NCBI GenBank assembly: GCA_945787525.1
Contig: CALZJC010000003.1
Span: 4,950 to 53,494 of the forward strand
Source of the DNA: Thermoanaerobaculia bacterium
GTDB lineage: Bacteria; Acidobacteriota; Thermoanaerobaculia; Multivoradales; JAHEKO01
Length of the DNA stretch: 48,545 nt
Reading direction: 5' to 3'
Shown: one piece after another, positions 5,309 to 36,499 of the stretch
Position numbering within the stretch: position 1 is the stretch's first letter
Layout: every line of letters starts with the position of its first letter
The notes under the pieces: model-generated
Told to the model about the DNA's origin: nothing
Databases searched by the model: none
What the model saw: the letters and a program-made list of their open reading frames with translations, nothing else
Program-made: the position numbers and the translations under genes

Positions 5309-7749
5309 GGGCTCGGCTCCGTTGGTGTCGCGCCGGCGCGCTCGAAATACTCCTCGAGCCGCTGGTACCAGAGGTCCCGCTCCACCGGGCCGAGAAAGAA
5401 ATCGAACCGGTTGGCGGTGCGCTGGACGTCCATCAGGTCGATGAAGAAGTCGTAGATCGAGTTGGCTTCGAGCAGCTCGGCGTTGAGCGCCACATTCTGC
5501 GCATCCAACAGCTCGAGGATCGACACCGCGCCTCGGGCGTAGGCGTCCTCGACCAGGTCGAGGCTCTGGTGCGCCGCCTCGGAGGCCTGCCGCGACAGCG
5601 CGATGCCGGCGTACGAGGCGCGGGCCAGCTCGACCCCGGAACGGATCCGCTGGGCGATCCTTTCGGCCACGGCGTCGCGCTCCAGGCTCAGCCGGTCGAG
5701 GTCGATCGTCGCCTGCATCGCCGCCGCCCGCTGGGCGCCGCCAGCGAACAGGGTGACAACGGCGCTCAGGCCGAGGCTCCAGCTGGTGTCGTCGGCCGTC
5801 GGCAGGGAAAGGCCGGGCAGCGAGACCGCCTGGGAGCCGGCGCCCGAGCGGGAGAGCCGCTCATCGAGGCTGGCCTGGAGGCCGATCGTCGGTACCCAGG
5901 AGGCGCGTCGGGCGGCGGCGACCGCGCGCCGCTGAGCGGCGATCGCGGCGTCGAGCGCCCGCAGCTCGGGCGCTGCAGCCAAGCCCTCGTCGACCATGAA
6001 GTCGCGCAGCACGCGCAGCCGCTGCGGCGTCGTGGTGTAGCCCTGGAAGCGCTCTTGACCGGTGATCAGGTAGGCGTCGGTCAGGTTCACCTCGGCGGTC
6101 AGGAAGCGCTCTTCGAGGTCGCGGTGCAGCAGCCGGTTGAGTGCTATCTCGGCCACCCGCCGTTGGGCCAACGCCTCGATCAGCCCCTTGCGGTCGGTGG
6201 CGATCTGGCTCTCCCAGCGGAACACCTCGGCCGGGTTGGCGGCACCGATGGTGCGTCGGATCCGCGCCAGCTCGAGGTTGGACCGGGTGAGCTGCAGGTT
6301 GTTGCGCTGCACCTGGGTCAAGGTCTTGGCACGCAGCAGGTTGAGATAGGTGACCGCCCCCTCGAGCGCGATGTCGAGGCGCAGCGCTTCGAGCTCCTGC
6401 TCACGCGACAGCTGCACGTTGCGCTGGATGGCCAGATTGGCGAGCGCTCCGTCCGAGTAGAGCAGCTGCCGGACGGCGGCCGAGCCGGTCAGGGTGCGCT
6501 CGGCCTGGGAGCCGAAGCTGGCCGCGGCGCTGTCGTCATCGATCTGGACACCGGTGGCCGACAGGTCGAACTGCGGCCGGAAAGCGGCTCGCGCCTGCGC
6601 CACGTCCTGTTCGCCGGCCGCCACAGTCAGCCGCCGTGCTGCCAGATCCAGGTTGGCCTCTATGGCCAGCTCCACCGCGCTCTCCAGCGCCAGCGTCGGC
6701 AGGTCCGAGGCCTCGGGGTGCAGCAGGCGGGCCTCGACCAGCGTGCCCCAGCTGGGCGAGACGCCGATCGCCCGAGCGGTGGCCATGTTGATGGTCAGCT
6801 GGTCGCGCATCTCGAAGTCGACCGGCAGCTCGCCGGGCTCGGCGCCGAGCAGAATGCGCTGCAGGTTGAGCGCCAGACGACGGGTCAGCCGCGGCAGAAA
6901 CTCGTCCGAGCCCAGGCTGGCGAGCATGCCGAGCTCCACGTCGATGCCACCCAGCGCCGAGAAGGAAGGCAGCCGGCGCTCGTTGAGGCCGTCGATCAGC
7001 CTGCGCCTCTCGTCGGGCGACACCAGAAAGAGAGGCCATACGAAGACGGCGTCGACGTCGGTCGAGATCGCGGTCAGGGCCTCGGCGGCGTTGTCGCGGA
7101 CGCCGATGTACTGGAACTCCAGACCCAGCTCGCGGAGGGTCTCCCGGGTGCGCGGCTCGAGCCCCGGGATCGCCTCGAGCAGCGCCGCGATGGTGACGAT
7201 CGCCACTTTGCGAAACGGCACCAGCTGGCGGAAGAAGCCCAGCTCGTCGGCCAGATTGTCGGGCAGCGAGACGTAGCTCAAGTTGGGCACGCCGCTGGCG
7301 CCGTTGTCGAACGGCGCCCCCTGGATCACCCGATCGATCATCACCGGTGCGATGACCGGCTTGGGCAGGGCACCGCGGCAGCAGACGGAGTGGGAGGCCA
7401 ACATGCCCCAGGTGATCACAACGTCGACCTGCGGGTCGGCGAGCAGCAGTTCGAGGTTGCTGCGCGCCGTCTCGGCCGTCCAGTCACCGATGAGATAGGA
7501 CTCGTCGGGGAACCGCACATCGAACTCGCCCTCGGTCAGCGCAGTGACCTCTCGGCGGGTCAGCTCCCGGATTCCGGGGTTGCCTTCCCAGGGCCCGTCG
7601 ACGACGACCCCGACGCGCACCATCGGCAGCTCGGCGGCGACCAGGCCTGCGGCACAGAGCCAGCCCGCCAGCAATGCCACGACCAGCAGCCGAGCTCGCT
7701 TCGCCCTGCGATGGCTCCAGCGGTTCTTGACAACCGTCATTCTGGCCAT
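5305..7749 (-). CDS. TolC-like outer membrane efflux protein with N-terminal ABC_sub_bind/periplasmic-binding-protein-like domain (fusion)
   Basis: 814 aa. Residues about 40-340 resemble the PF04392-type fold (VGVVVDGPW..., DVVITWG, KPVIAPV, VAIVT, ...ILLGAEPGELPVDFEMRDQLTINMATARAIGV). Residues about 350-814 have two OEP repeats (LDLAARRL..., LELARIRRTIGAANPAEV...). An alternative start at ATG 7740 has better SD spacing. Confidence 0.8.
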   Translation of the reverse strand: MARMTVVKNRWSHRRAKRARLLVVALLAGWLCAAGLVAAELPMVRVGVVVDGPWEGNPGIRELTRREVTALTEGEFDVRFPDESYLIGDWTAETARSNLELLLADPQVDVVITWGMLASHSVCCRGALPKPVIAPVMIDRVIQGAPFDNGASGVPNLSYVSLPDNLADELGFFRQLVPFRKVAIVTIAALLEAIPGLEPRTRETLRELGLEFQYIGVRDNAAEALTAISTDVDAVFVWPLFLVSPDERRRLIDGLNERRLPSFSALGGIDVELGMLASLGSDEFLPRLTRRLALNLQRILLGAEPGELPVDFEMRDQLTINMATARAIGVSPSWGTLVEARLLHPEASDLPTLALESAVELAIEANLDLAARRLTVAAGEQDVAQARAAFRPQFDLSATGVQIDDDSAAASFGSQAERTLTGSAAVRQLLYSDGALANLAIQRNVQLSREQELEALRLDIALEGAVTYLNLLRAKTLTQVQRNNLQLTRSNLELARIRRTIGAANPAEVFRWESQIATDRKGLIEALAQRRVAEIALNRLLHRDLEERFLTAEVNLTDAYLITGQERFQGYTTTPQRLRVLRDFMVDEGLAAAPELRALDAAIAAQRRAVAAARRASWVPTIGLQASLDERLSRSGAGSQAVSLPGLSLPTADDTSWSLGLSAVVTLFAGGAQRAAAMQATIDLDRLSLERDAVAERIAQRIRSGVELARASYAGIALSRQASEAAHQSLDLVEDAYARGAVSILELLDAQNVALNAELLEANSIYDFFIDLMDVQRTANRFDFFLGPVERDLWYQRLEEYFERAGATPTEPSP

Positions 7750-7828
7750 TCCTCGGTGCCTCTATGGTCGAAAAACCGATGGTAGCGGCTGGAGAGGCCG
7801 AGTGCCAGTCGGTTCTGGCGGTAGACTC

Positions 7829-9828: not shown

Positions 9829-11127
9829 ATGATCGCTTTCGTCACCCTGTTCCTCGGCCTGGTGACCGGTGAACAGATGGTGGAAGTCGCGGTTTCCGGC
9901 AGCGTGGCGACGGTCGAGTTGAGGCTCGACGGTGAGTTGGCTGGCAGTCTCAGCGCGGCGCCGTGGAAGAGGACGCTCGATCTCGGCCGCGAACTGACGA
10001 CTCACGAACTGGTGGCGGTGGCGCACGACAGCGCGGGGGTGGAAGTGGGTCGCGCCATACAGCAGGTCAATGTGCCTCGTTCGCCGGTCGAAATGGAGAT
10101 CCTGTTGCACGGTTGGGAGGGAGGCCGGCCGCGGTACGCGCGCCTGATCTGGCGTTCCGCGTTCCTGATCGAGCCGGACTCCATCGCCATATCGCTCGAC
10201 GGGAAAGCCCTGGCGACAGACGACCTAAGCCACATCGAGCTGCCCGAGGTCGATGCGAAGTCGTTGCACTTCATCAGCGCCGAGCTGACCTTCCCAGACA
10301 ACCAGCGCTCCACCGCCCAGTCGATCTTCGGTGGCCGCTACGGTGTCGAAGTGGAGTCGGAGTTGACGGCGGTTCCGGTGCTATCCGTGGGGCGCCGGCT
10401 CGAGCGTCCGGAGGATGGACGGGGCTGGCTGCGGCGCCCGAGCGGCGAGCCGCTTCGGGTGGTTGCGGTCGAGGACGAGGTCGCGGAGGTGGTGATCGTG
10501 CGCGATGACGCCGCACTGGGGACTCTGCAACGCCTCGGGCGCACTCTCCGGCGCGAACGGCCGCGCACCTACAGACAGGTCGGCCTGTTGGCGGAGGATC
10601 GGCTGTTCCTGATGTCCGCCAGGGCCGTGATCTCGGCCCGCCCAGAGGTGGCCTACGCGCTCTATCCGATCTCGCGCGCCTTCGGTCTCGCGGATGTGCC
10701 CCTGCCCGTGGCCCTGTCGGTTGTCGGTTTTAGCGCGGAAACGCATACCCAGCAGCGGCTGTCCGACGCGGTGACAGTCGCCGGTGTGAAAGCCGCGGCG
10801 GGGGGCAAACGGCGCGCGGTCCTGCTGATCGTGGCGGACTGCTCTGAGCGGAGCGGCCAATGGACTGGTGACGAGGCCCGCCGTTTTCTGGCCGAGCTGC
10901 GGGTGCCGCTCGAGGTCTGGACAACCCGCCGGCCCGACCGTGAAAGCGGTGGGTTTTGCCGGGGGGCAAGCCTCCTCAAGAACACCGGCAGCTATCTGGG
11001 GGCTCTTGGCCGCTTGCGTCGGTTGATCGGGAGACAGCAGATCCTGTGGGTCGAGGGGCGCCACTTGCCGCGCGAGATCGTTCTGGCCGACACTGCACCG
11101 GCGACGGAAGTAGTGCAACTGAACTGA
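9829..11127 (+). CDS. Hypothetical protein (N-terminal hydrophobic segment, Ig-like then degenerate VWA-like region)
   Basis: 432-aa ORF, 14 nt after the previous stop and on the same strand. Coding-like composition but no firm motif. Confidence 0.55.
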   Translation: MIAFVTLFLGLVTGEQMVEVAVSGSVATVELRLDGELAGSLSAAPWKRTLDLGRELTTHELVAVAHDSAGVEVGRAIQQVNVPRSPVEMEILLHGWEGGRPRYARLIWRSAFLIEPDSIAISLDGKALATDDLSHIELPEVDAKSLHFISAELTFPDNQRSTAQSIFGGRYGVEVESELTAVPVLSVGRRLERPEDGRGWLRRPSGEPLRVVAVEDEVAEVVIVRDDAALGTLQRLGRTLRRERPRTYRQVGLLAEDRLFLMSARAVISARPEVAYALYPISRAFGLADVPLPVALSVVGFSAETHTQQRLSDAVTVAGVKAAAGGKRRAVLLIVADCSERSGQWTGDEARRFLAELRVPLEVWTTRRPDRESGGFCRGASLLKNTGSYLGALGRLRRLIGRQQILWVEGRHLPREIVLADTAPATEVVQLN

Positions 11128-11153
11128 AGGGCTGAGTCCCGAGGAGTGATGAC

Positions 11154-11348
11154 GTGAGCCAAGAGAAGACAACCTGTGTCGCCTGCCAACGTGACGACGC
11201 CGAGGTCCCCCTGCTGCAGCTCAGCTACCGGGGCGGCAAGTTCGACATATGCCCGCAGCACCTGCCGATCCTGATCCACGACCCAGCGCGTCTGGTCGGC
11301 CTCTTGCCGGGTGCCGAAGAGCTGTCGCCGGCCGACCATCACGATTGA
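11154..11348 (+). CDS. Small Cys/His metal-binding protein (64 aa)
   Basis: GTG start preceded by GAGGAG. CVACQ...CPQH gives four potential Zn ligands. Ends 9 nt before def. Confidence 0.5.
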   Translation: MSQEKTTCVACQRDDAEVPLLQLSYRGGKFDICPQHLPILIHDPARLVGLLPGAEELSPADHHD

Positions 11349-11357
11349 GGAAGCGCG

Positions 11358-11906
11358 TTGGTCGAGCCCGCTGCGATCGTGCTGCTCGGTGATGAGCGGC
11401 TGCGCCAGGTCTGCCGTGCGGTGACCGACTTCGCCGATGCCGAGCTGCGCGCGGCCTGCGCCACGCTCGGCGCTACGCTGATCGACTTTCAGCGCCGTCA
11501 CGGCTTCGGCCGCGCCATCGCCGCGCCGCAGATCGGCGTTGGACTGCGCATCGTCGCCCTGGACCCGGCGCACGGACCGCCACTGCTGATCAACCCGGAG
11601 ATCACCTCGCGTTCGACCGAGAGCATGACCCTGTGGGACGACTGTATGAGCTTCCCGGATCTGCTGGTGCGGCTGCGGCGGTCGCGCTCGATCGGCCTGC
11701 GCTACCGTGATGCCACTGGTGCCGGGCACGAATGGAATGAGCTCGAGCCGAGCGTCGCCGAGCTTCTGCAGCACGAGATTGACCACCTCGACGGCGTCCT
11801 GGCGATCGACCACGCCCTGGACCGCGAGGCGATCGTGCTGCGGGCCGTCTTCGAGGCGCAGCCGGAGCGGTTTCGCGAACAGGTGGACTGGCCGGCGGGC
11901 GGCTGA
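11358..11906 (+). CDS. def: Peptide deformylase
   Basis: Motif I GFGRAIAAPQIG, motif II variant DDCMSFP (canonical EGCLS), motif III HEIDHLDGV. 182 aa; non-ATG start per the ORF track. Confidence 0.85.
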   Translation: MVEPAAIVLLGDERLRQVCRAVTDFADAELRAACATLGATLIDFQRRHGFGRAIAAPQIGVGLRIVALDPAHGPPLLINPEITSRSTESMTLWDDCMSFPDLLVRLRRSRSIGLRYRDATGAGHEWNELEPSVAELLQHEIDHLDGVLAIDHALDREAIVLRAVFEAQPERFREQVDWPAGG

Positions 11907-11958
11907 GGAGCGGCCTGACTCGCGGCACCGGCCGCCGGGTGGACCGGGAGCTGTGGCG

Positions 11959-12081
11959 ATGAGGGTCCTCCTCGACAGCAACGCCTACTCGGCTCTGATG
12001 CGTGGCCACCGCGAGGTCGTCGCGCTAGTGCGGGAGGTTCTTGGTGATCCGGCTCACCTCTCGGCCGGCGCCGCGGCGTAG
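11959..12081 (+). pseudogene. Remnant of a PIN-domain (VapC-like) toxin gene, N-terminal about 25 aa only
   Basis: ATG 11959, MRVLLDSNAYSALMRGHREVVALV is a typical PIN N-terminus. The reading then degenerates and stops after 40 aa. No antitoxin ORF upstream. The 3' end overlaps the convergent gene ending at 12054. Confidence 0.4.
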
Positions 12082-12917
12082 AGGTCGGCACACTGGCGGC
12101 AGAGGCCTCGCGCCGGCTGCCAGTCCGGAAGATCGCGCTGGATTGCTCGCACAGTCCGCTGTCCCAGCCCGGTGGGGTCTGGGTGGAGAGTGGCGGTGGG
12201 CATGCGACAGACGGGGCACCGGTTGTGGGCCGGCCCTGGGCCGGGCAGGCGCGGCTCGGCGGCGAACCCGACGAGTTCGGCATGGCTCGGCCGGATGCCG
12301 CCAAAGAAGCGCCCGAACCAGCGCTCGCCGCTTTCGCCGAGCATCGAGAAGACGCTGAGGAACTCTCGCCGCCGGGCCGCCTCGGCGGCGGCGGGCAGTT
12401 CGCCCCTGGCCAGCAGACGGCCATCGATCGTGGTGTCCCAGAGGGTCTGGTAGCGCCGGCGGAGGAGACTGTCGAGCGCCGCCGAGTCGTCGAGGGTCGG
12501 CAGCTCGGGCTCGAATCCAAACTCCGAGTCCAGCATGTCCGCGACGTGGAGCAGCTCGTGGCGAAGGAAGGGCAGGAGGCGAGCTCGATCGACCAGCGTG
12601 CTCACCCGCAGGCAGAGCAGAAGGGTCGGAGGGCCATCGCCGCGGCGATCGGGCTTGAGGTCGGCGTACTCCTGGCGGGCGTGGACGACCGGGACGAACC
12701 ACCGGCGGCTGAGCTCGTTGAAGGCCGAGTCTCTTCGCTCGGGCCCCTCGATCTCGTAGAGGGGGTCGCGGCGACGGCGGAAACGGCGCCGCGCGGCGAT
12801 CGGTGAGGTGCCGATAGCGAGCAGGACCGAGTCCTCGACCAGACGCGGGTCGAACTCGAGCGGATAGCCGTCGACTGGCGGGTCGGCGGTCGTCGGAGCG
12901 GCCGACGAGATACTCAT
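12054..12917 (-). CDS. HExxH-motif protein with C-terminal CxxC...CxxC zinc ribbon, last gene of the molybdoenzyme operon
   Basis: The real start is ATG 12917 (MSISSAAPTT...), which overlaps the chaperone stop as ATGA. Motifs: LRHELLHVADMLD, and the C-terminal CPVCRMP...CRQCADLY. The upstream part of the 507-aa track ORF is an off-frame overlap. Confidence 0.65.
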   Translation of the reverse strand: MSISSAAPTTADPPVDGYPLEFDPRLVEDSVLLAIGTSPIAARRRFRRRRDPLYEIEGPERRDSAFNELSRRWFVPVVHARQEYADLKPDRRGDGPPTLLLCLRVSTLVDRARLLPFLRHELLHVADMLDSEFGFEPELPTLDDSAALDSLLRRRYQTLWDTTIDGRLLARGELPAAAEAARRREFLSVFSMLGESGERWFGRFFGGIRPSHAELVGFAAEPRLPGPGPAHNRCPVCRMPTATLHPDPTGLGQRTVRAIQRDLPDWQPARGLCRQCADLYAAAPAER

Positions 12918-13741
12918 CTCGGGTCGCCGGGCGTGGCGGCGGACGGACCACGGCGAGCCGCGCCGCCGCCGAGCTGGACCAGCTCGTCGTCGCCCGATCC
13001 GCAAGCCATGGGAACCCCATCGGGCTCGGTCGAGCGAAGCTCGAGGACGTCCGGCCCCAACGGTAGATCGAGCCGCTCGCACTCGACGCGCAGCAGGGCC
13101 TCGCAGAGGCCACCCAGGGCGCCATAGAGCTCGTCGCGCGCCGCCTCCTGGAGGGAGCGGGCGAATGCCCGTCCGAAGCGCGCCAGATGATCGCCCAGGA
13201 ACGTCCGCGCCGCGCTGCGGGTGACCTCGGCCATCTCGTCGTCGCCATGCGCCTGGGCCCAGCACTCCTTGCGCACCAGGAACTCGAGGAACTCGAACTG
13301 GCAAGCGATGTGGTCCGCCCGTTCGTGCCGCGTCCCGCTGGCGCGGAGTCCGAAGGCGGCGTAGGAGCCGGACAGGTCGGCCAGCTCCTGCGCCTGCTGG
13401 AGCAGGGCGCGGTGGCCATACTCGCATTCGTACGGGCAGACGCGGCCGCGCAGGGTGTGGCCAAAGAGCCGCTCGTGGCTCAGGCGGATCTCGCCGAGCC
13501 CGGGATCGGCCAGGGCGCAGAGGCGATCCACCGCGGCGCCGAGCGGCCCCGGCCGGCCCTCCTCCAGGCTGCGGCATGCCTGGCGCAAGGCCGCGCGACC
13601 CTCGACGTCGAAGAAGGTCCCGACCGTGGCCTTGCTGGGGCGGTCGAGACCGAGCTTGAGGGCCCGGTAGAGGACGCCGCGCGCCAGCAGCCGGTCGGTG
13701 GCGTCTTCGGCAGCGACAGATGTCGGAGTTTCGACGGTCAT
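12914..13741 (-). CDS. TorD/NarJ-family private chaperone of a type II DMSO-reductase-family enzyme (delta subunit)
   Basis: 275 aa. Motifs: YRALKLGL..., HERLFGHT...CPYECEYG, ADHIACQFEFLEFL. Lies 9 nt downstream of the beta subunit gene. Confidence 0.8.
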   Translation of the reverse strand: MTVETPTSVAAEDATDRLLARGVLYRALKLGLDRPSKATVGTFFDVEGRAALRQACRSLEEGRPGPLGAAVDRLCALADPGLGEIRLSHERLFGHTLRGRVCPYECEYGHRALLQQAQELADLSGSYAAFGLRASGTRHERADHIACQFEFLEFLVRKECWAQAHGDDEMAEVTRSAARTFLGDHLARFGRAFARSLQEAARDELYGALGGLCEALLRVECERLDLPLGPDVLELRSTEPDGVPMACGSGDDELVQLGGGAARRGPSAATPGDPR

Positions 13742-13750
13742 CGGCGGCCC

Positions 13751-15019
13751 TCAGATCGAGTTGGCGTGGGCGTTGGAGCGCACATAGAGGGGCTCTTCGA
13801 CCGTGGTCCGGAACAGCTCACTGCCGTCTTTACCGAAGGCGATGACTGTGTCGTTGTAGAGGGTCACCGGCCGCCCGCGATACTCCCCTTCGTAGATCAG
13901 CGGCCCCTCTTCGATCTCATAGCGGAAGATGATCCGGTTGTCGCGGCGGAAGAGCTGCAGGACACACAGCAGTTCGCGGTCGGGGTGCTTGTAGCGCTCG
14001 ACCGCCTGCCCGACCCCGGGGCCGAACATCTGCTCGAGGTAGGCGTGCGGTACCCAGCGGGGCGGGATGTAGTAGCCGTTGGGCTGCGTGCCGAGCTGCG
14101 GATAGAGCGGTAGGGCGACCTTCGCCACGTGGACCAGGTAGTAGAGCGGATTCTGGCGATCCTCGGCCCAGGTGCCGTCCTCCGCCAGCCTGGCCAGGCC
14201 CTGGAGGCGGATCTGGCCGATGCACGCCGCCATGCAACGGGTTACCATCGGCACGCCGCCCGACTCGGGATCCGTGCCCTCGACCCGCGGGTAGCAGGCG
14301 ATGCACTTCTCGCTCACCCTGGTGTTGCCGCGGTAGAGGGACTTCTTGTAGGGGCAGGCCTCGACGCACTTGCGGTAGCCGCGGCACTCCTGCTGATCGA
14401 TCAGCACGATGCCGTCCTCGGGCCGCTTGTAGATCGCCTTGCGCGGGCAGGCTGCCAGGCAGCCGGGGTAGCTACAGTGGTTGCAGATCCGCGCCAGATA
14501 GAAGAACCAGGTGTCGTGCACCGGCAGCTCGACGCCCTTCGGGTCCAGGCGGTCGCGGACGCCGGGCTTGCCCAGCGGGTTGTCCTCGTAGATATTGGGC
14601 GAGTTCCACTCTTCATCGGTCGGCAGATAGCCCAGGACACGCGAGCTCTCGGGATCGAAATGGGTCTCGGCCGCCTCGAAGATCGTCTTGCCCTTGAACT
14701 CCCCGTAGGGTCCGAACCGTTGGTCGAGATCGGCGCCCTGCCAGATCTGCCCGTCGGGGTCGGCCTCCTGGAGCTGGCGCAGGATCTTGACGTCCCAAGA
14801 CTGCGGATAGCCGCCGTAGGGCTTGGTCTCGACGTTTGCCCACCACATGTGCTCCTGGCCCTTGCTGAAGGTCCAGGTCGATTTGCAGGCCATGGTGCAG
14901 CTCTGGCAGGCGATGCAGCGGTTGATGTTGAAGACGAAGGCGAACTGGCGTTCGGGGAAGCGCGCCTCGTACGGGTACGCCATCTCCCGTCCCAGCTGCC
15001 AGTTTCCTACTTTTGGCAT
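13751..15019 (-). CDS. Molybdoenzyme iron-sulfur (beta) subunit, NarH/NxrB-like
   Basis: 422 aa. Cys clusters CIACQSCTMAC, CNHCSYPGCLAACP, CRGYRKCVEACP and CIACYPR. N-terminus MPKVGNWQLGREMAYPYE...FAFVFNINRC. AGGAGGG SD 6 nt upstream. Confidence 0.9.
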   Translation of the reverse strand: MPKVGNWQLGREMAYPYEARFPERQFAFVFNINRCIACQSCTMACKSTWTFSKGQEHMWWANVETKPYGGYPQSWDVKILRQLQEADPDGQIWQGADLDQRFGPYGEFKGKTIFEAAETHFDPESSRVLGYLPTDEEWNSPNIYEDNPLGKPGVRDRLDPKGVELPVHDTWFFYLARICNHCSYPGCLAACPRKAIYKRPEDGIVLIDQQECRGYRKCVEACPYKKSLYRGNTRVSEKCIACYPRVEGTDPESGGVPMVTRCMAACIGQIRLQGLARLAEDGTWAEDRQNPLYYLVHVAKVALPLYPQLGTQPNGYYIPPRWVPHAYLEQMFGPGVGQAVERYKHPDRELLCVLQLFRRDNRIIFRYEIEEGPLIYEGEYRGRPVTLYNDTVIAFGKDGSELFRTTVEEPLYVRSNAHANSI

Positions 15020-15369
15020 CGTTCGCCCTCCTGTCGCTCGTCACTCGGTCGTGACGCGGTGCGGGAACCGATCCGGACCAGGCCGGCGGGCGCCGAGTCG
15101 CGGACGACGAACCGTACCCGCCCCCACAGCTCGAGACTCTCGTCGATGATGCGCCGGACCTCTTCTTCGCCGAGCATCCGGTAGGCGCGGTGCGCGCCGG
15201 CGTAGCGCGGCCGCCGGAACATCTCCAGCAGACGCTCGCCGGTGAAGCCCAGCGCCGCGAACTCGTCGGCGAAGGTGGCCGCCATCTGGCGCGTCGAGTC
15301 GAGGTCGCCGGGGATGGAGACCCCCACCAGCTCGTGCGGGTCGGCGGGATCGGGATCGCGGTACGGCAT
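15007..15369 (-). CDS. Unassigned 120-aa protein encoded between the alpha and beta subunit genes
   Basis: ATG 15369 is preceded by GAGGAG and lies 14 nt after the alpha stop. The 3' end overlaps the beta start by 13 nt. No signal peptide or cofactor motif. Confidence 0.55.
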   Translation of the reverse strand: MPYRDPDPADPHELVGVSIPGDLDSTRQMAATFADEFAALGFTGERLLEMFRRPRYAGAHRAYRMLGEEEVRRIIDESLELWGRVRFVVRDSAPAGLVRIGSRTASRPSDERQEGERCQK

Positions 15370-15382
15370 GGTTCTCCTCGCC

Positions 15383-18300
15383 TCAGGCCTTGCGCACGCG
15401 GGTGATCTCGCCTGCCAGGTAGCTGCGCATGAAGTCGTTCTCGTTGTCCGGGGTGTAGCCGGTGGTCGCCGGCTGCCACATCCCCTGGCCGCCCATGCCG
15501 CCGTCCTCGGCCTTGGTCACCCGCACCAGGGTCTCCTTGGGGACGGTGTTGAGGGCGTGGTTGTCGGCCTCGCCGCCAAAGATGAACTTCATGAACACCT
15601 TCGACTTGTGAAACAGGGTGTCGGTCTGGTGCATCGGCATGTGCCAGTTGCGGGTGATCGACTGCTGCGAGCCGTAGCGCAGGTTGGCCTGGTAGCCGGT
15701 GTTCTCCGACAGGGCGCGGCCGTCGGGCCGGCTCTCGTGCGCCCGGACGCTCTTCTCGGTGGCGATGAACGGCGCGTGCTTCATCATCACGATGTTGTAC
15801 GGGTAGGCGTGGTTGTACTTGACCCGCAGCATGCAGCGCGCCACGCGGTAGAAGAACTCGTCCGGTTTGGCACCCAGGTAGGGCCGGTCGGCCGGGTTGG
15901 CGTCGACGTAGACGTAGTCGCCGTCGTTGATGCCCAGATCGCGGGCGGCCTGGGGGTTGACGTGCAGCTGGTGCTCGCCGACCGAGGGGGCGCGCTTGTC
16001 GAGCCGGTAGGGGTCGCCGAAGTTGGAGTCGTAGAGCATGTGCCAGTCGACGTTGGACCAGCCGCTGTGAACCCGGTGCCGGGTCTTGGGCGTCAGGCAG
16101 TAGAACTGGAGGCCCTTCTCCCAAAGAAAGTTCTTGGTTGTCTTGACCCTCTTCCAGGGCATCTTGATGTTGCGCACGGTGCGCTCGTCCCAATGCTCCG
16201 CGTCGGCCGGCAGGCCATAGTCTTCGGGGCGGACGAAGGGGTTGGAGCTGACGATGACGTTGGGCAGATAGGGCGTCGCCTCGGGGCCCTCGCGGTGGAC
16301 GATGAAGTTCTCGCCGTACTCGATCGCCTCCGGCACGTCGGTGTAGGCGTGCAGGCGGCCGGTGTCGGTGTGGAACGGCTCGTTGTCGTGGATCTGCTCG
16401 TAGAACGGGATCCGCGGGTAGGTACGGAAGTTCATCAGCGCGCCGCCCGGAGGGCCGTACTTGCCGGCCATCAGGTCCTCGACCCGGTAGCCGCTGGTGG
16501 TGGTCGAGCTGTCGAGCAGCCGCTGCAGGTAGATGTCCCGGCGCCCCTCGTGCTCGAACTTGAATGCTTTCTCGAACCGGTCGTCGCCGGTCACCCGGCC
16601 CAGGGCGCGGCCGATACCGGCCAGGATCGCCAGGTCGTCCTTGCTGTCGAAGACCGGCTGGATGCCCCCTTTCCAGGCCTGCAGAAAGGGGTTCGAGCAG
16701 CTGGCGGTGACCTCCAGGTCCTCGAACTCGAGCCACGAGTTCGCCGGCAGGGCGAGGTCTGCATACTCGATCGAGGCCGTCATCTGGATGTCGAACGAGA
16801 CGATCATCTCGATGTTGGGATTGACGTTCTTGATCATGCCGTAGGCCCACTTGGCGTTGTTGATCAGTGACGTTGTTGAAGATGATCGACTTGGTCGGGG
16901 TCGGCATGTGGCTGGCGCCGGTAAAGCAGCGCCGGCCGAACCTGGGGGTGTCGACAATCAGCGCCTGGTCGCCGTGGTTCCAGTAGGCGGGCTCCTCGTC
17001 CTTGGTGTAGGCGTGGGCGCGAATATCCTTGCCGTGGGTCGCGGGATCGAGGTCCAGATCGAACGGATCCTCGGCCACCCAGCCCTTGAAGCCGGGGCCG
17101 GTCCACGGTGAGCCCTGAAAGAGCGCCGCCTTGTAGTTACCGGCCCAGGTGTGGCAACCAGCGCCCGGCTTGCCGATGTTGCCGGTGAGCATCAGCGGCA
17201 GGTAGGCGGCGCGGTTCATCTCGGTGGCGTGGAACCAGTGGTTGATTCCCTCGCCCTGGTGGATCGCCACCGGGGCCATGGTGGCGATGTCCTCGGCCAG
17301 CCGTTCCACCATCTGCCGCGGGCAGCTGGTGATGTCGCAGACCGTGTCGAGGTCGTAGTCCTTCAGGTGGGTCTGGTAGAGAGTCCACAGGGTCGAGCAG
17401 CGGGCGGTGTGGCCGTTGGCCAGGCGGACATCGAAGCTTCCCCCAAGGGCCGGGGCGAGGCCCGTGGCCGTCATCGCCCCGCCCACGTCGTCGCGGTTTA
17501 GCGCCCGCGGGCGGCCTTCGGTCTCGTCCCAGATGACGTAGTCGCCCAGTTGGGCGTGCTGCTCGGCGGTCAGGCCCTGGATCTTCATCGACGGGCCTTC
17601 GGGGTCGAGTTCCGTGCGATAGTCCGGGAAGACCTCGTGCGCCCTGAGCCGCCGCAGGTTGTCGTGCCGCACGAGCAGCGGAAAGTCGGTGAAGGTCTTG
17701 ACGAACTCCTCGTCGTACGAGCCCTTCTCGATCATCAGCCGGGTGATGCCGAGCCACAGAGCGGTGTCGGTCGCCGGCCGGATGGGGATCCAGTAGTCGG
17801 CTTTGGTCGAGGGCGGCCCGTACTCGGGCGCGATCACCACGATCTTGCCGCCCCGCTCCATGCACTCGATGAACCAGTGGGAATCGGTGAGCTTGTTCTC
17901 CACCAGGTTCTTGCCGTCCATGATGATCAGCTTCGAGTAGCGCAGGTCGTTGAAGTCGCAATCCGAGGCCTGGAGGCCGTGCACCCAGGGGTGGCCGGGG
18001 GCCTGGTCGCCGTGCCAGGTGTAGTTGGACCAGGTGCGGCCGGCGCGGGCCTTGTCGGGTCCGACGCCGCGGGTCTTGGCGTCGAGCAGGGCGAGCGAGT
18101 TGCACAGGCGATACATGCCGTACTTGCCCAGCACCCCCAGCAGCCCCATGCCGCCGCGCATCTTGATCGTGCGCGTCCCGGCCCCACCCATCGCCTCGAC
18201 CATCTCCGGCTGGTAGCCCTGGGCGAGGAGGCGCTCGGCGCCCTCCTCGCCGCTGTAGCGCTTGGAGATGCTCTCGAGAGCCAGGGCCATCTTCTGGAAC

Positions 18301-18848
18301 GCGTCGTCCCAGGAGATCTGGATGAACTCGTCGTCGCCTCGGCTGTCGAACTTGTATTTGCTCTTGAGCTCGGGTGTCAGCTCGGGGAAACCGGCTTCGG
18401 CCCAGGCTTTCCAGCCGCGCCGCACGATCGGGTGGCGCAGCCGGTAGGGCCCGTAGATCACGCGGTGAAAGGTGTAACCCTTGGCGCACTGGCGGGGGTT
18501 CCAGTTGACGCTGGCGTGGTTGCCGTAGAGGTCGGCGTAGTCCTGGTAGTCGTAGGTCGAGCCGCTCCTGACGACGATGCCGTTTCTTACGTAGGCGCGA
18601 ATACGGCAGGCGTGGGTGTCGTTGGGCGAGCAGACCCAGTCGAAGGTGCGGTCGTAGCGATACTGGTCGTGGTAGATCGTTTCCCAGTCCCGCCGCACCG
18701 CGCGCGAGAGGGGGTTGTCGTTCGGATCGAGGGGCTCGAGGAACGTGCAGGCGCCCTCGAGACCGATCACGGCGGCACCGACGCCGCCGCCGAGGAACTT
18801 CATGAACAGCCGGCGATCGATCGAGGAGCGCAGCGGTTCTGTCGTCAT
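15383..18848 (-). pseudogene. Molybdopterin catalytic (alpha) subunit, Tat-exported, NXR/type II DMSO-reductase family; split by a 1-nt frameshift near 16868
   Basis: ATG 18848 with a GAAGGAGG SD. Twin-arginine motif SIDRRLFMKFLG. Motifs CSPNDTHACR and SNYTWHGDQAPGHP. The N-part 18848..16869 (660 codons) reads ...TKSIIFNNV. The C-part 16867..15383 (494 aa) continues LINNAKWAYGMIKNV... in the +1 frame. Joined length is about 1154 aa. Confidence 0.85.
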
Positions 18849-18862
18849 CTCATCTGCCTCCT

Positions 18863-20527
18863 TCAGGGAGCCAGTACCAGTTCTTGCCAGATGGTCACCG
18901 ACTTCTTGCCGTCGCGATCGCCGGCGCTGCCGTCCCACACCGCGAAGGCCACGGCGAGCTTCTGGCCCGCCACCAACGACGTCGCACCGGCGCCGCCGCG
19001 CTCCAACGACCGGCGGAAGAGCACCCGATACGAGCCGGTGGCCCAGCTGCCGGTGGAGCCGACCGCCAGATCCGCCGCGGGGCGCGCCCGCAGGGTGCCG
19101 AATCCCTCGGCGGTCAGGTCCTCGACGGACCGTTTTCCGGTGGGGTCGGAGACCACGTTACCGGCGCCCCAGGCGGTCACATAGGTCGGATCCGATTCCA
19201 GGGTCAGGGCGTCGCGGGTCGGCTGCTCCAGCGGCGAGCGCAGGAAGTTGGGATAGGAGTCGATGCCCATGTTGGGGTAGACCTTGTCGAGGTCCTGGTA
19301 GGCCGGCCGCAGGTCGGCCTGGCGCTCGGACTTCCACATCCAGATGTTCACCCCACCACCCGGTTGGCCCATGGCGAAGAACGGCGGATCCGCAGCCCGG
19401 GCAAGTTGCACCGCGGCCGCGTCGCGAAAGTCCTGCGGCCGGATGACCGTGTGGTCCCAGGTCGAGTCCGGCCAGACGAGCAGCACAGCCAGCTCCTCGC
19501 CATCGTGCGCCGCCATGACCGTCAGCTCCTCGGGTCGGTTGCCGCGCCACCACAGCGGCATCAGATGGAGCGAGACCGGCTCGATCGCCCTCCAGCCGCC
19601 GGCGTCCGGGTGGTCTGGCAGCTCATCGACGCGGCTCGCCACCACCCGGTAGCGCTTCATCTCCACCGTCTCGCGCTGCTCCGGACTCGACATCGAGAGC
19701 ACCAACCGGGTCAGATGCCAGGCGTCATCGCCGTGGAGATAGGGGCTGGACGGCATGGGCGAGCCGGGCAAGCCTGCGACGATCCGCCGGTAGACCTCTG
19801 CGGGCTCGGGCGTGCCCTTGAACACCCCCGCCGTCAGGTCGCGGGGCCGGGTCGGGCGACCCTGCGAGTCGAACTGCTCCTGCGCTCCATCACCACGGCC
19901 GGTCTCGCCGTGGCAGGGGGCGCATCCCTGGCCGAACAGCTCGCGCGCTCGCGCCTCGCCGGCGGGTGTCTCGGTCGGCATGGCGGCGGTTCGGATGATT
20001 CCCTTGCCGGTTCCGTACCGCTTCGTCGGCTCCTCCGGTCCGGGCACCTCGAGCGGGCGGCTGGACATGGACTTGATGTAGTGCACCAGCCCCCAGCGAT
20101 CCTCCTCGGGCAGATGCGCCCAGGAGGGCATGGCCGAACCCGGCATGCCGCGGGAGATCGTCCGGTAGAGGTCCTCGTCGGTGGGCACCCCCTCCCAGGT
20201 GGAGACCAGGCGATACTGACCGCGGGTGAAATCGCGAGGTTTGGGGTAGAGGAGGTATGCCGCCTCTCCTTGGCCGTCTCCCAGCATCCCGTGGCAGGCC
20301 TGGCACTGCTTCTCATAGACCGCCTGGCCGCGGCGCAGCAAGCTCGGCGACGTGGCGAGCGCTCGAGTCGGCTGGATCGACGCCTGGATCTCGCCGGTAG
20401 AGAGCTCGGTGGGCACCTGACTGCAGCCGCCCAGAGTCAGCCCGACCGATGCCGCGATCGCCACCCGAACGAGTCCCGGCCAGCGCCACCCGAGAGGTTG
20501 CACCCACAGCGGAACCTTGCGGCCCAT
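18863..20527 (-). CDS. Gamma subunit: probable lipoprotein, two c-type heme domains fused to an EB_dh-type (heme b) domain
   Basis: 554 aa. Possible signal/lipobox LTLGGCSQ. CQACHG and CAPCHG, each followed by a G(M/L)PGSxMP Met-ligand motif. The C-terminal half has EB_dh signatures (DAAAVQLA..., VNIWMWK, AVAFAVWDGSAGDRDGKKSVTIWQ). Confidence 0.8.
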   Translation of the reverse strand: MGRKVPLWVQPLGWRWPGLVRVAIAASVGLTLGGCSQVPTELSTGEIQASIQPTRALATSPSLLRRGQAVYEKQCQACHGMLGDGQGEAAYLLYPKPRDFTRGQYRLVSTWEGVPTDEDLYRTISRGMPGSAMPSWAHLPEEDRWGLVHYIKSMSSRPLEVPGPEEPTKRYGTGKGIIRTAAMPTETPAGEARARELFGQGCAPCHGETGRGDGAQEQFDSQGRPTRPRDLTAGVFKGTPEPAEVYRRIVAGLPGSPMPSSPYLHGDDAWHLTRLVLSMSSPEQRETVEMKRYRVVASRVDELPDHPDAGGWRAIEPVSLHLMPLWWRGNRPEELTVMAAHDGEELAVLLVWPDSTWDHTVIRPQDFRDAAAVQLARAADPPFFAMGQPGGGVNIWMWKSERQADLRPAYQDLDKVYPNMGIDSYPNFLRSPLEQPTRDALTLESDPTYVTAWGAGNVVSDPTGKRSVEDLTAEGFGTLRARPAADLAVGSTGSWATGSYRVLFRRSLERGGAGATSLVAGQKLAVAFAVWDGSAGDRDGKKSVTIWQELVLAP

Positions 20528-20655: not shown

Positions 20656-21444
20656 TCAGGTCACCCGGGCATGCCGGATCAGGCGGCTGAAGAGGCTGGG
20701 AAAGAGCCGTTTGAGATAGACCGCGTACCTCTCCTTGCCACCGATCAGCACTTCTTCGCGATCCCGCTCGACGGCCCGGACGATCTTCGCCGCGCAGCGC
20801 TCGACCGGGTAGCCCCGGCTCTGGGCCCGGTCCATGAATCCCTGGGGGGTGCCGTCGCCGGTCAGGGCGTGCAGCGGCAGGTCGGTCTTGATGAAGCCGG
20901 GACAGACCAGGGTCACCCGGATGCCCGCGCTCCAGAGCTCCGAGCGCAGCGAGTCGAAGAAGCCGTGCAGCGCGTGCTTCGAGGCGGCATAGGCGGAGCG
21001 CACCGGGGTGCCGATCTTGCCCACCAGGCTGGTGACGACGACGAAACGGCCGCCGCCGGCCTCGAGCATCGACGGCAGCAGCGCCTTGGTGAGGGCCACG
21101 GTGCCAAAGAAGTTGGTTTCAAAAAGGCGGCGGTCGACCGCGAGGTCGGTATCGACGACCAGCGCCCGCTGGCTGATGCCGGCGTTGTGCACCATGACGT
21201 CGATGCGGCCGGCGTGCCTAAGCGCCGCCTCGACGGCGACCGGGATCGTCTCGGTCGCGGCCAGGTCCAGCGGCACCACTTTGTGGCGCTCGGGCTCGCC
21301 GAGCGCGTGCCGTAGGTCCTCCAGTTTGTCAGCGCGGCGCGCCGAGAGGATCAGCCGCGCGCCGCGCTCGGCGAGGAGCCGGGCGACCGCCTCACCGATG
21401 CCTGAGGAGGCGCCGGTGATCCAGACCACTTTGTCCCGCCACAT
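20656..21444 (-). CDS. Short-chain dehydrogenase/reductase (SDR)
   Basis: Motifs TGASSGIGEAVARLL, NNAG-type HNAGIS and YAASKHAL. 262 aa. Confidence 0.9.
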   Translation of the reverse strand: MWRDKVVWITGASSGIGEAVARLLAERGARLILSARRADKLEDLRHALGEPERHKVVPLDLAATETIPVAVEAALRHAGRIDVMVHNAGISQRALVVDTDLAVDRRLFETNFFGTVALTKALLPSMLEAGGGRFVVVTSLVGKIGTPVRSAYAASKHALHGFFDSLRSELWSAGIRVTLVCPGFIKTDLPLHALTGDGTPQGFMDRAQSRGYPVERCAAKIVRAVERDREEVLIGGKERYAVYLKRLFPSLFSRLIRHARVT

Positions 21445-21581
21445 GCCGGTCTCCAGCGTAGCAGAGGCGAGAGAGGCGCTCGTCTGGAGCGGTCGGCCGA
21501 GGAGCCCTTGCGGAACCGGTCTCCACCCTGGTCAGATCCCGCCGGGGGACAGCGCCGTAATTACCTGAGGAGAGCCAGACC

Positions 21582-22544
21582 GTGCACCGAGTCCCCCACC
21601 TGTTCCTGGCGCTTGTCGGCCTGTTGGCGGCGGGCACGCTGACCACCACGAGGGCGACGGCCGAGGAAGAGCCGCCGCCGGGCGTCGAGCAGCTGCTGCC
21701 GCGGGGTCGCATCGCGGCGGTCCTCGAGCCGCAGTTCGTGCCCGCCGCCGAGGCCGACCTGCCCGACGACGCCTGGGTGCTCGGCGTCGTCATCGACGGC
21801 ATCGCCAAGGCCTATAGCCTGAACCTGTTGAACCGCCACGAGGTGGTCAACGACCGGACCGGCGAGACCGCCTACGCGGCGGTCTGGTGACCGCTGGCCA
21901 ACACGGCCGTCGTGTACGGCCGAGAATACGGCGATCGGGAGCTCAACTTCGAGGCCTCGGGGGCGCTCTGGCAGGCGTCGCTGGTGATGCGTGACCGGGA
22001 GACCGACAGCTGGTGGTCGATCATGACCTCCAAGGCCATCGGCGGCGAGCTGCACGGCGCCGACCTGGTCGAGATGCCCTATGGGGAGAAGCGCACCTGG
22101 GGCGATTGGCGGGCGCGCTATCCCGACAGCATGGTGCTGTCGGTGGAGGGCAGCCAGCACGAAGCGCACAGCCCCTATGACGAGTACTTCGCCAACGACA
22201 ACACGTTCCGCGATCTGGAGATCGCCGACCGGCGGCTCGGGCCCAAGACGCCGGTCTTCAGCTTCTTTCTCGACGGCAAGCCGTATGCGGTGCCGCACGC
22301 CGCCGTCGAGGGTCGGCGACTGTTCGAGGTCGGTGACGTCAGGCTGTTGTTCTTTCGCCAGCCCGGCGCCGAGCTGTTCGCCTCGACGCGGGCCTGGATC
22401 GCACCACCGGAGGCGGGCGGCACCGTCGAGGCACTGCCGGCCGACGATGAGCTGGAGGCCGCCGGCTTCGAGGTGCTGGGCGGTATCGATACGTTCTGGT
22501 ACACCTGGGCCGCGGTCAACGAGAGATCCGAGATCCTGCGCTAG
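21582..22544 (+). CDS. DUF3179-family secreted protein with an in-frame TGA (21888-21890) at the family Cys position: candidate selenoprotein or nonsense pseudogene
   Basis: GTG 21582 follows GAGGAG, with a signal-like N-terminus. Track ORFs 21582..21890 and 21912..22544 share a frame and together read ...VVNDRTGETAYAAVW-TGA-PLANTAVVYGREYGDRELNFEASGALWQASLVMRDRETDSWWS. This is colinear with the DUF3179 core (..VTYCPLC..FgvSG.L..snlvmyDreTeSlW). Confidence 0.7.
21904..21922 (+). other. SECIS-like hairpin 13 nt downstream of the DUF3179 TGA
   Basis: A perfect 7-bp stem, cggccgt / acggccg, with loop CGUGU. The loop G/U falls about 22-23 nt after the UGA. Confidence 0.4.
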
Positions 22545-26881: not shown

Positions 26882-27277
26882 CTAGTGGGCCGGGGCGAGG
26901 TGGCTGTCGGGCTCCACCGGCGGCGGCTCGTGGCGCAGCCGAGCGCGCTTGCGCATCCGGCTGAAGACGAACAGGTTGAAGAAGTGCATGAAGCCCAGGA
27001 CGAGGAGCACGCCGCCGACCTTGCCGGACAGGGCCTCGACAGCTCCTCTCGAGGAGAGAATCTCGCCGCCCAGCTTGAGCGCCAGCGTCACGTAGCCGAG
27101 ATTGACGAGATAGAAGCCGACGACCAGCAGGTGGTTCACCGAGTCGGCCAGGTCCTCTCGCCTGAACACGTCGACGAGGAAGACCCGGCCGTTGCGGTGC
27201 AGGGTCCGAGCGACCCAGACCGTGAGCAGGATGCTGATGATCAGGTACGCGATGTAGGTTGGGAGGATGAGGTCCAT
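26882..27277 (-). CDS. Small integral membrane protein (3 predicted TM segments), first gene of the TetR operon
   Basis: 131 aa, with hydrophobic segments. AAGGAG SD 6 nt upstream of the ATG. Confidence 0.6.
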   Translation of the reverse strand: MDLILPTYIAYLIISILLTVWVARTLHRNGRVFLVDVFRREDLADSVNHLLVVGFYLVNLGYVTLALKLGGEILSSRGAVEALSGKVGGVLLVLGFMHFFNLFVFSRMRKRARLRHEPPPVEPDSHLAPAH

Positions 27278-27295
27278 GAGAGCTCCTTTCTGTTT

Positions 27296-27309
27296 TTGAA
27301 CACGTTCAA
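27296..27309. promoter_or_regulatory. Palindromic operator O1 (TTGAACACGTTCAA), probable TetR site downstream of the -10
   Basis: A perfect 14-bp palindrome between the -10 and the SD. Confidence 0.55.
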
Positions 27310-27316
27310 CAAGTGC

Positions 27317-27345
27317 AGTATAGGCGGGGTTGGCCTGTCTGTCAA
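27317..27345 (-). promoter_or_regulatory. Sigma70-type promoter of the membrane protein-DCC-TetR-epimerase operon
   Basis: The minus strand reads TTGACA-N17-TATACT (-35 at 27345..27340, -10 at 27322..27317). It sits in a locally AT-rich stretch. Confidence 0.65.
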
Positions 27346-27351
27346 GTTTTT

Positions 27352-27365
27352 TTGAACGCGTTCAT
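27352..27365. promoter_or_regulatory. Palindromic operator O2 (TTGAACGCGTTCAT), probable TetR site abutting the -35
   Basis: 13/14 palindromic with the same half-site TTGAAC as O1. Centre-to-centre spacing is 56 bp. Confidence 0.5.
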
Positions 27366-27526
27366 AGATCGCTGCCGCCCTCCTCGGTGGCGGGCCGGCC
27401 GGCTTGCAGACGAGCGGTCTGGCTTTTCCCTGGCCCGGCTGGGGCCCAGCCTGGCCGGCTGTGAGCGGCCTGAGGTGGATGCCGGGCGTGAAGACGGGGC
27501 CGGCCGGCCTGCGACAGGCGAGATCT

Positions 27527-27748
27527 TCAGGCGGCGTCGACGGCGCCGATCCACCGCTGCGTGACTTCGAGCACGTGCGTAGTCTCGGGGCGCGCCAGGG
27601 CCTGATCGGTGAAGCTGCTGATGTCGTCGTGTTCGGCGCCGGCGAGCCGCAGCTCCTCCCGCACCGCGGCGACCAGAGCGAGAGGATTGGGGCTGCGAAT
27701 CGAGACGCTGATCTCGGGGTAGCGGGGAAGTGGGCGGTCGGGAGGCAC
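27527..27748 (-). CDS. Small hypothetical protein (73 aa)
   Basis: ORF 19 nt downstream of the RHH gene on the same strand. No motif recognised with confidence. Confidence 0.45.
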   Translation of the reverse strand: MPPDRPLPRYPEISVSIRSPNPLALVAAVREELRLAGAEHDDISSFTDQALARPETTHVLEVTQRWIGAVDAA

Positions 27749-27767
27749 TCGATCTCTCCCCGTCTGG

Positions 27768-28259: not shown

Positions 28260-28309
28260 GTATGTCTCCGCTGCGTAATGACTGGCTCCGAGTGACACTT
28301 ACAGATTAC

Positions 28310-36356: not shown

Positions 36357-36499
36357 CGCCGCGGAGCTTATCCTGCGTAGTCTGAGAAGCGCCGCGTGGC
36401 GACATCGGGTAGAAAAGTATCAACTTCCTCTCGGGGCCGTTTCTTGCGAGATTCTCACAAGTTGTTCATTTGTAGATACTTAGGGTCGTTCGAGGAGCA

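Follow-up and report, generated by a model that had tools for sequence, protein, structure and literature searches.

A conserved six-gene cassette predicted to encode a periplasmic nitrite:nitrate oxidoreductase in a Thermoanaerobaculia bacterium

To our knowledge, nitrite oxidoreductase (NXR) is the only enzyme that forms nitrate biologically. The NXR of the anammox bacterium Kuenenia stuttgartiensis (NxrABC, PDB 7B04; Chicano et al., 2021, PMC8387239) is described by a structure in which C67, D71, C75, and C115 ligate the FS0 iron-sulfur cluster, N70 positions the substrate, D275 is a ligand of Mo, and the haem b of NxrC has Met/Lys ligation. The first Cys of FS0 is replaced by His in the solved NAR and EBDH structures, the substrate Asn is Ile in EbdA, and the Kuenenia enzyme both oxidises nitrite and reduces nitrate in vitro (PMC8387239). 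The periplasmic NXR of Nitrospina and Nitrospira (Lücker et al., 2010, 2013; PMC3578206) includes an alpha subunit exported by the twin-arginine (Tat) system, a signal-less beta subunit of ~425 aa that is presumed to be co-exported, gamma-like proteins in which an EB_dh haem b domain is joined to 1–3 haem c sites, a TorD-like chaperone, and a conserved zinc-finger protein. These features are shared, Tat export putatively on the strength of a motif and the zinc-finger protein probably, by the operon analysed in this work, which lies at 12054–20527 of a 48,545-nucleotide stretch (the window; G+C ~69%) of Thermoanaerobaculia bacterium contig CALZJC010000003.1 (GCA_945787525.1) and consists of six minus-strand genes in the order gamma-alpha-X-beta-chaperone-Y, X and Y being two accessory genes. 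The locus is like that of Kuenenia in its alpha with a Tat motif, its full-length beta, its gamma with a Met/Lys EB_dh domain, and its TorD-like chaperone and Y, both of which have counterparts near the Kuenenia genes. On the other hand, gamma in the window's operon includes a fused dihaem cytochrome c domain, anammox loci lack X, the two enzymes fall into separate clades of the alpha tree, no NXR-T (tubule) subunit was identified in the window, and the host has no anammoxosome. It differs from the Nitrospina and Nitrospira systems in that the hosts of the window's clade are not known nitrifiers.

We propose, with a probability of roughly 0.85, that the cluster encodes a periplasmic, cytochrome c-coupled NXR-family enzyme that interconverts nitrite and nitrate, along with the factors for its maturation; this figure applies to family identity and architecture, not to the direction of catalysis. 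Alpha (15383–18848, minus strand) is the NxrA-like catalytic Mo-bisMGD subunit and measures 1154–1155 aa once a frame break is repaired, with the Pfam domain Molybdopterin matched in both halves. The repaired protein aligns end to end with Kuenenia NxrA (7B04_B) at 1722 bits, and the next-best solved relatives, PcrA, EbdA, and NarG, score 177, 152, and 108 bits, respectively. Its identity to Kuenenia-like NxrA is 62%. Beta (13751–15019, minus strand; 422 aa), which is NxrB/NarH-like and matches Fer4_11 in Pfam, gave 576 bits over residues 3–422 against Kuenenia NxrB (7B04_A) and 192 bits against PcrB. Both subunits are thus far nearer to Kuenenia NxrA/NxrB than to PcrAB, EbdAB, or NarGH, and with the twin-arginine motif and the alpha tree this bears out the earlier note on this DNA, which had read the operon as a periplasmic NXR-type molybdoenzyme.

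The active-site residues point the same way. Alpha residues C73, N76, D77, C81, C121, and D281 align with Kuenenia C67, N70, D71, C75, C115, and D275, so that the FS0, substrate-Asn, and Mo-Asp positions are all kept relative to Kuenenia NXR; the earlier note had proposed a comparison of substrate-channel residues. Across the 25 sequences of the window's clade in the tree alignment none of these residues varies, and the same holds for the 26 other NXR-type sequences of that alignment except for one Gly at the C115 position. The alpha motifs quoted earlier, SIDRRLFMKFLG, CSPNDTHACR, and SNYTWHGDQAPGHP, were all found, as were the quoted N-terminus of beta and its four Cys clusters. The N-terminus of alpha reads S-I-D-R-R-L-F-M-K followed by a hydrophobic stretch, which is a twin-arginine motif, and a relaxed form of the RR pattern was seen in 62 of 73 alpha N-termini of relatives; the Tat and lipoprotein signals reported here are motif-based calls. 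Beta has no evident signal peptide. Its 15 Cys fall into groups of 4, 4, 3, and 4 (C35/38/41/45, C179/182/187/191, C212/218/222, and C239/242/262/266), the pattern expected for three predicted [4Fe-4S] clusters and one [3Fe-4S] cluster. The next gene, as the earlier note had said, encodes a TorD/NarJ-type private chaperone (12914–13741, minus strand; 275 aa), which matches Nitrate_red_del in Pfam (3e-15) and, under the curated cut-off, TIGR03482 (9e-21).

The alpha-beta-gamma plus chaperone design and the Fe-S wire are common to the type II DMSO-reductase-family enzymes (PcrAB, 4YDD; EbdABC, 2IVF; Ser, Clr, and Ddh) and NarGHI, and a soluble gamma with Met/Lys haem b and Tat export are found, as predicted here, throughout this family except in Nar. 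However, the similarity of alpha to these enzymes amounts to only 100–177 bits. The earlier note had referred the operon to the type II enzymes and named their subunit models as a check; in NCBIfam, where the halves of alpha were scored separately because of the frameshift, all four subunits remained under the curated cut-offs. The scores were 264.8 and 67.5 for the two alpha halves against 984.75, 244.4 against 480.7 for beta, 107 against 169.85 for gamma, and 74.7 against 152.3 for the chaperone, and the matches to TIGR03479, TIGR03478, TIGR03477, TIGR03482, and TIGR01580 were all below their cut-offs. Nor does the cluster belong with NarGHJI: TIGR01580 gave 111 against 1084 and TIGR01660 gave 171 against 524, the RR motif is present, and there is no NarI in the cluster. 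An enzyme acting on some other substrate, such as chlorate/perchlorate, selenate, DMS, or a hydrocarbon, would account for the fact that generic type II DMSO reductase subfamily models are the best NCBIfam matches and that the gamma and chaperone types are common to Ser, Clr, Ddh, Ebd, and Pcr. We nevertheless regard it as highly improbable, as those scores are all far under the cut-offs, PcrA and EbdA score about 10-fold lower than NxrA, and alpha keeps both the 3Cys/1Asp FS0 and the substrate Asn, a position that Ile occupies in EbdA (PMC8387239).

The phylogeny of alpha, another check that had been proposed, was obtained as a neighbour-joining tree (Kimura distances, 1141 columns, 100 bootstraps) in which alpha from 24 named genome loci and from 26 metagenome loci was joined by P0281, a cluster representative with 62% identity, and by three outgroups, which were more distant cluster representatives from SAR202, Gaiellaceae, and Halorussus; named Nitrospira or Nitrospina sequences are not among its taxa. 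The whole NXR family, including the window, was set apart from the outgroups with 100% bootstrap. The window's cassette clade of 25 taxa was recovered with 100%, as was the grouping of the window with Thermoanaerobaculia and Vicinamibacteria. The anammox and marine nxrABC groups formed a separate clade with 73%, and the window's clade lies outside it. In 50% clustering, the whole family collapsed into a single full-length representative (62% identical), and the next full-length clusters were 44–45% identical. The marine nxrABC-type loci, which are assumed to be Nitrospina-like, differ from the window in that their alpha is only 54–55% identical, X is missing, and the NxrC in the operon carries haem b only.

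Gamma (18863–20527, minus strand; 554 aa) has an EB_dh domain (3e-22) and two cytochrome c domains in Pfam, Cytochrome_CBB3/Cytochrom_C being matched twice. Residues 64–284, which contain CQACH and CAPCH, match the Kuenenia cytochrome 6H5L_B with 147 bits, and residues 335–550 match NxrC (7B04_C) with 83 bits; the residues aligned with the haem b ligands Met155 and Lys305 of 7B04_C are kept. The N-terminal signal peptide ends in a lipobox-like LGGC. A lipobox pattern was present in 22 of 65 gamma homologues, and the others examined mostly have an ordinary hydrophobic signal peptide. By its predicted domains, this fused dihaem-c/haem-b gamma corresponds to the 'alt_NxrC' class, which has been described for Nitrospina, Nitrospira, and Kuenenia (PMC3578206). 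Fused counterparts, 35% identical over the cytochrome c portion and 27% over EB_dh, also lie a few kb away in anammox loci, so the fusion is not the unusual feature for which it had been taken.

The coordinates agree exactly with the six co-directional minus-strand genes that the earlier note had described: gamma and alpha are separated by a 14-nt gap, alpha and X by 13 nt, and beta and the chaperone by 9 nt, while X and beta overlap by 13 nt and the chaperone and Y by ATGA. The six genes are tightly or translationally coupled. Promoter and terminator scans of the operon gave nothing useful, and Rfam and tRNA scans were empty.

This layout is far from exceptional. Relatives of alpha are encoded in 550 GTDB stretches (one genome per species), of which 80 were studied, their gene layout being scored by tblastn with the proteins of the operon as queries. 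The complete set of six was detected in 52 of these 80 loci, and in every one of the 52 the genes stand in the window's order; the remaining 28 loci lack one or more genes, mostly at a contig end, and none is rearranged. What had been called a non-canonical, unusual layout is thus the standard of the clade. The loci span ~13 phylum-level labels, namely Acidobacteriota, Methylomirabilota/Rokubacteria, Binatia, Planctomycetota, Gemmatimonadota, Latescibacterota, and Eisenbacteria, together with Marinimicrobia, Hydrogenedentota, Omnitrophota, Syntrophobacter-like Desulfobacterota, Myxococcales, and Cytophagia. Alpha is 73–91% identical to the window in the loci studied, and its best matches (89–91%) come from metagenome-assembled genomes (MAGs) of Thermoanaerobaculia, in keeping with the earlier view that this bacterium does not look like a classical nitrifier. 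The median identity to the window was 80% for alpha, 77% for beta, 65% for the haem b domain and 58% for the cytochrome c domain of gamma, 52% for X, 42% for the chaperone, and 38% for Y. In the protein database, 2197 clusters reached E <= 1e-50 among 8000 candidates scored, and the best 120 of these were 78–85% identical to alpha. The few named clusters come from MAGs of Acidobacteria, Vicinamibacterales, KSB1, Planctomycetota, and Limnocylindrales, and some are called 'nitrate oxidoreductase subunit alpha'. The 'NXR' of MAG surveys (RIFCSP Acidobacteria, Rokubacteria CSP1-6, and groundwater loci) belongs to the same clade, with an alpha identity of 79–81% and the same six-gene order, although the surveys (Rifle aquifer; East River floodplain, PMC8141241) treat these genes as marker-gene hits only. 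Our literature search turned up neither an account of the cassette as a conserved unit, nor one of X or Y, nor any biochemical test.

The genes that flank the cassette are not conserved across loci, and the flanks of the window have no genes in common with those of its closest relatives. Among the recurrent neighbours are molybdenum cofactor genes (MobB, radical SAM/MoaA-type, and FmdE), hemerythrin-like proteins, sigma-54 two-component systems, and a few cytochromes. An Rrf2-family regulator of ~148 aa, which we take to resemble NsrR/IscR, stands just upstream of gamma in 16–18 of the 80 loci (e.g., L060:1795–2241 and L015:6952–7368); in the window, an SDR gene (20656–21444) occupies this place instead. 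The six genes therefore form a self-contained cassette in varied genomic contexts. Because identity is high across phyla, the sequences suggest that the cassette has spread horizontally.

A second set of 80 metagenome loci was collected with the Kuenenia NxrA sequence (7B04) as query and likewise scored by tblastn. The order of the anammox loci is C-B-chaperone-Y-A or Y-A, as against gamma-A-X-B-chaperone-Y in the window. In L082–L097 and L120, which are anammox-type loci 85% identical to Kuenenia NxrA, the order is NxrC-NxrB-chaperone-Y-NxrA with an alt-NxrC ~5 kb upstream, and in the Kuenenia-like L081, Y-NxrA is followed by unrelated genes. Since these orders differ, NXR gene order is fluid among anammox-type loci, whereas it is fixed in the window's clade.

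The two accessory proteins differ in their distribution. X (15007–15369, minus strand; 120 aa) has a conserved N-terminus, MPYxDPDPxDP, was detected in 78 of the 80 GTDB loci, and lies between alpha and beta wherever both neighbours are present. It is restricted to the window's clade and five other loci (L111–L113, L122, and L123), and tblastn did not detect it in the anammox or marine nxrABC loci of the metagenome set. The gene after nxrA in L081 was considered as an X homologue and turned out to encode a cupredoxin-like/CarboxypepD_reg-type protein instead. Such a secreted CarboxypepD_reg-domain protein recurs beside NXR clusters (L081:4199–4990, directly after nxrA, and several other flanks, e.g., L056:7523–8329 and L049:17931–18656); it may correspond to a protein that Lücker et al. 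(2013) called 'cupredoxin-like'.

Homologues of Y (12054–12917, minus strand; 287 aa) were detected 3' of the chaperone in 59 of the 80 GTDB loci. Moreover, in a locus with 97% identity to Kuenenia, the gene immediately upstream of nxrA encodes a Y homologue, and others occur in further anammox-type loci (C-B-chaperone-Y-A) and in those of the marine nxrABC type (Y-A-B-chaperone-C). When Y is aligned across these groups, E-x2-H-x2-D, one His, one Trp, and two CxxC pairs, which are C-terminal in Y, are kept. By this distribution, Y is a pan-NXR accessory gene. Lücker et al. (2013, PMC3578206) list 'one putative zinc finger' protein that the NXR clusters of Kuenenia, Nitrospira, and Nitrospina have in common, and Y is probably this protein. 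The two extra reading frames, which had been taken as unusual, are therefore so in the case of the clade-restricted X and not in that of Y.

Neither X nor Y has a signal peptide, both being predicted cytoplasmic proteins, and neither was matched in Pfam, NCBIfam, or the PDB by sequence and profile searches. Of the AlphaFold models, both built from family alignments, that of X has a confident four-helix core (residues 23–82), and that of Y is confident, with a pLDDT of 86.6 and a pTM of 0.79; Foldseek against the PDB returned nothing significant for Y or X (best E 0.78 and 5.0, respectively). Since no Pfam, PDB, or Foldseek match was found, both are uncharacterised families. A protease function was considered for Y and X and rejected, as a single weak Peptidase_M90 match (E 0.053, one of 62 members) was not accepted as evidence. 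The fixed positions of X between alpha and beta, and of Y, suggest a part in cofactor insertion or export proofreading.

The integrity of alpha in this genome is a separate matter. Its N-terminal 656 codons and C-terminal 495 codons lie in different frames, and the window lacks 2 bp near 16869 (16866–16872, minus strand), where it reads GTCA--CTG as compared with GTCAACCTG in 12 of the 12 best DNA relatives. All relatives examined encode N-V-N-L-I-N at this site, and Kuenenia NxrA has VNLINNAK. Programmed frameshifting is unlikely because there is no slippery sequence, and every relative has both extra bases. The repaired alpha matches its Thermoanaerobaculia homologue in one uninterrupted tblastn segment at 91% identity, and the part 3' of the break has a third-position G+C (GC3) of 0.92. 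As alpha is otherwise intact, the break reflects either a mistake in the assembly or consensus or else a gene inactivated very recently, and, to judge from the reading frames, the enzyme would be inactive in this genome unless the assembly is in error. The length of ~1154 aa given in the earlier note for the joined frames is correct, but treating the break as merely something to repair understates it, for the enzyme may be non-functional here.

Taken further, the deletion could be real and the operon a decaying pseudogene cluster whose enzyme is not made. The deletion is seen in none of the relatives of alpha, a second gene of the window, DUF3179, carries an in-frame TGA, and the alpha of a close relative carries an in-frame TAG. 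On the other hand, alpha is 91% identical in its best segment to an intact homologue, a strong coding signature persists 3' of the deletion, the other five genes of the operon are intact, and single lesions of such a kind are typical of assembly or consensus errors; we consider decay unlikely, though not negligible. The DUF3179 gene (21561–22544, plus strand) is split by the TGA at 21888–21890 ('AAVW*PLANTAVVY'), and the pieces on either side correspond to successive segments of the Pfam model; recoding, a nonsense mutation, or an error in the sequence could be the cause. Reading this TGA as selenocysteine was rejected, as the hairpin downstream was not significant (z -1.5) and Rfam gave no match. 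The relative mentioned is L001:4510–7950 (Thermoanaerobaculia MAG BS2bin.32), in which the TAG is codon 1016 of the match and takes the place of a Lys in the window ('VMMKHAP'). With it, this lineage has two disrupted alpha genes.

A scheme for the intact enzyme can be put forward from its homology to the crystallised Kuenenia NXR and from family knowledge. The TorD-like chaperone would hold apo-alpha in the cytoplasm, where Mo-bisMGD and the Asp-ligated FS0 would be inserted. X and Y, both of them signal-less, probably assist at this stage, and the E-x2-H-x2-D, His, and 4-Cys set of Y could bind metal. Alpha would then carry beta through the Tat system, while gamma would be exported separately by Sec and is probably lipid-anchored in this genome. 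Electrons would move along a chain of Mo, FS0, the four Fe-S clusters of beta, the Met/Lys haem b, the two c haems of gamma, and the periplasmic cytochrome c pool. By analogy with the Kuenenia enzyme, such a system would be intrinsically reversible, and the catalytic residues do not separate the window's clade from Kuenenia NXR, which works both ways in vitro. We thus agree with the earlier note that substrate and direction are not readable from the sequence.

As to the main physiological role, we hypothesize, at even odds, that the enzyme serves as a cytochrome c-dependent respiratory nitrate reductase under low oxygen. The host labels of the cassette include Syntrophobacteraceae, Omnitrophota, and Hydrogenedentota, which are mostly anaerobes. 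Among the neighbours in the 80 loci, no terminal oxidase or CO2-fixation gene is consistently linked to the cassette, and when the locus flanks were checked for genes indicative of direction (nir, nor, nos, oxidases, NarK), only Rrf2 regulators, molybdenum cofactor genes, hemerythrin, and a few cytochromes recurred, none of them decisive. The anaerobe-type labels and the lack of linked oxidase or CO2-fixation genes give a slight tilt to nitrate respiration. Several points weigh against this proposal or against the explanation as a whole. The direction is called from host ecology only; the high-potential Met/Lys haem b and the c haems fit nitrite oxidation equally well; the tree is a neighbour-joining one and contains no named Nitrospira or Nitrospina sequences; and the maturation roles of X and Y come purely from their position and absent signal peptides. 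The same haems are, by family knowledge, just as suited to the entry of electrons from bc1/ACIII via cytochrome c, the route taken in the reductases Ser, Clr, and Pcr. On the opposite side, MAG surveys annotate genes of the clade as nxr, and the transcription of nxrAB was high in low-carbon floodplain soil (PMC8141241). Our literature search found no functional study, no report of activity, expression, or cofactor, and no cultured carrier for the clade. Thermogutta terrifontis, a cultured nitrate-respiring planctomycete, has an NXR-related enzyme beside bc1 genes (PMC5673643, PMC12758564) and would be a lead for the nitrate-reductase reading if this enzyme belonged to the clade.

The opposite direction, which is the main alternative, would make the enzyme a true nitrite-oxidising NXR, by which heterotrophs feed electrons from nitrite into a terminal oxidase by way of gamma's c haems and cytochrome c, with nitrite as an auxiliary, litho-heterotrophic energy source. 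We hold this possible, with the odds somewhat against it. The closest characterised relatives are the NXRs of anammox bacteria (nitrite oxidisers being said to be close by the literature only), and alpha does not differ from Kuenenia NXR in its signatures of FS0 Asp and substrate Asn. Moreover, gamma is of the alt_NxrC type, which was proposed to hand electrons from nitrite to cytochrome c (PMC3578206), and custom hidden Markov models of NxrA/B find such genes in many floodplain genomes, where nxrAB was highly transcribed (PMC8141241). However, the window's clade is separate from that of the anammox and marine nxrABC types, and some of its hosts are labelled as typically anaerobic lineages. 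There is also no conserved linkage to oxidases, reverse-electron-flow modules, or CO2 fixation.

Beyond the operon, no other nitrogen-cycle, oxidase, or CO2-fixation gene was found in the window. The RND pump, type IV pilus, and Hdr genes that had been listed as its context were indeed found, at 1089–7761 (minus), 37777–44004 (plus), and 45488–48545 (minus). They include an RND efflux pump (AcrB, an HlyD-type adaptor, and OEP), a type IV pilus minor pilin with PilY1-like genes, a hemerythrin, and an MvhD/FlpD-ferredoxin protein adjoining an HdrA-like FAD protein. Several reading frames with a good coding signature have no Pfam match (9829–11127, plus; 10992–11981, minus; 26882–28298, minus; and 35592–37776).

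The window is one more copy, possibly defective, of a known but uncharacterised cassette, and what this cassette does in non-nitrifiers is a question for the clade and not for the window. The NXR family, the alt_NxrC-type gamma, probably Y as a zinc-finger protein, and the clade's genes as survey markers were already known; new here is the definition of a six-gene cassette with two uncharacterised accessory proteins, of which Y is common to true NXR systems. The clade is a very large and very conserved NXR branch in uncultured bacteria of soil, groundwater, and sediment that are not nitrifiers, and metagenome studies routinely count its genes as 'nitrite oxidation', with the direction assumed. 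Should these genes in fact encode nitrate reductases, inventories of nitrogen-cycle genes would be biased; should their products oxidise nitrite, nitrification would be much more widespread than thought. In the boldest version, which seems to us rather improbable, a horizontally spread cassette lets heterotrophs in more than 12 phyla oxidise nitrite, with X and Y as fold-novel maturation factors, Y for all periplasmic NXRs and X specific to the cassette. Were this true, the biological formation of nitrate would reach far beyond the known nitrite oxidisers.

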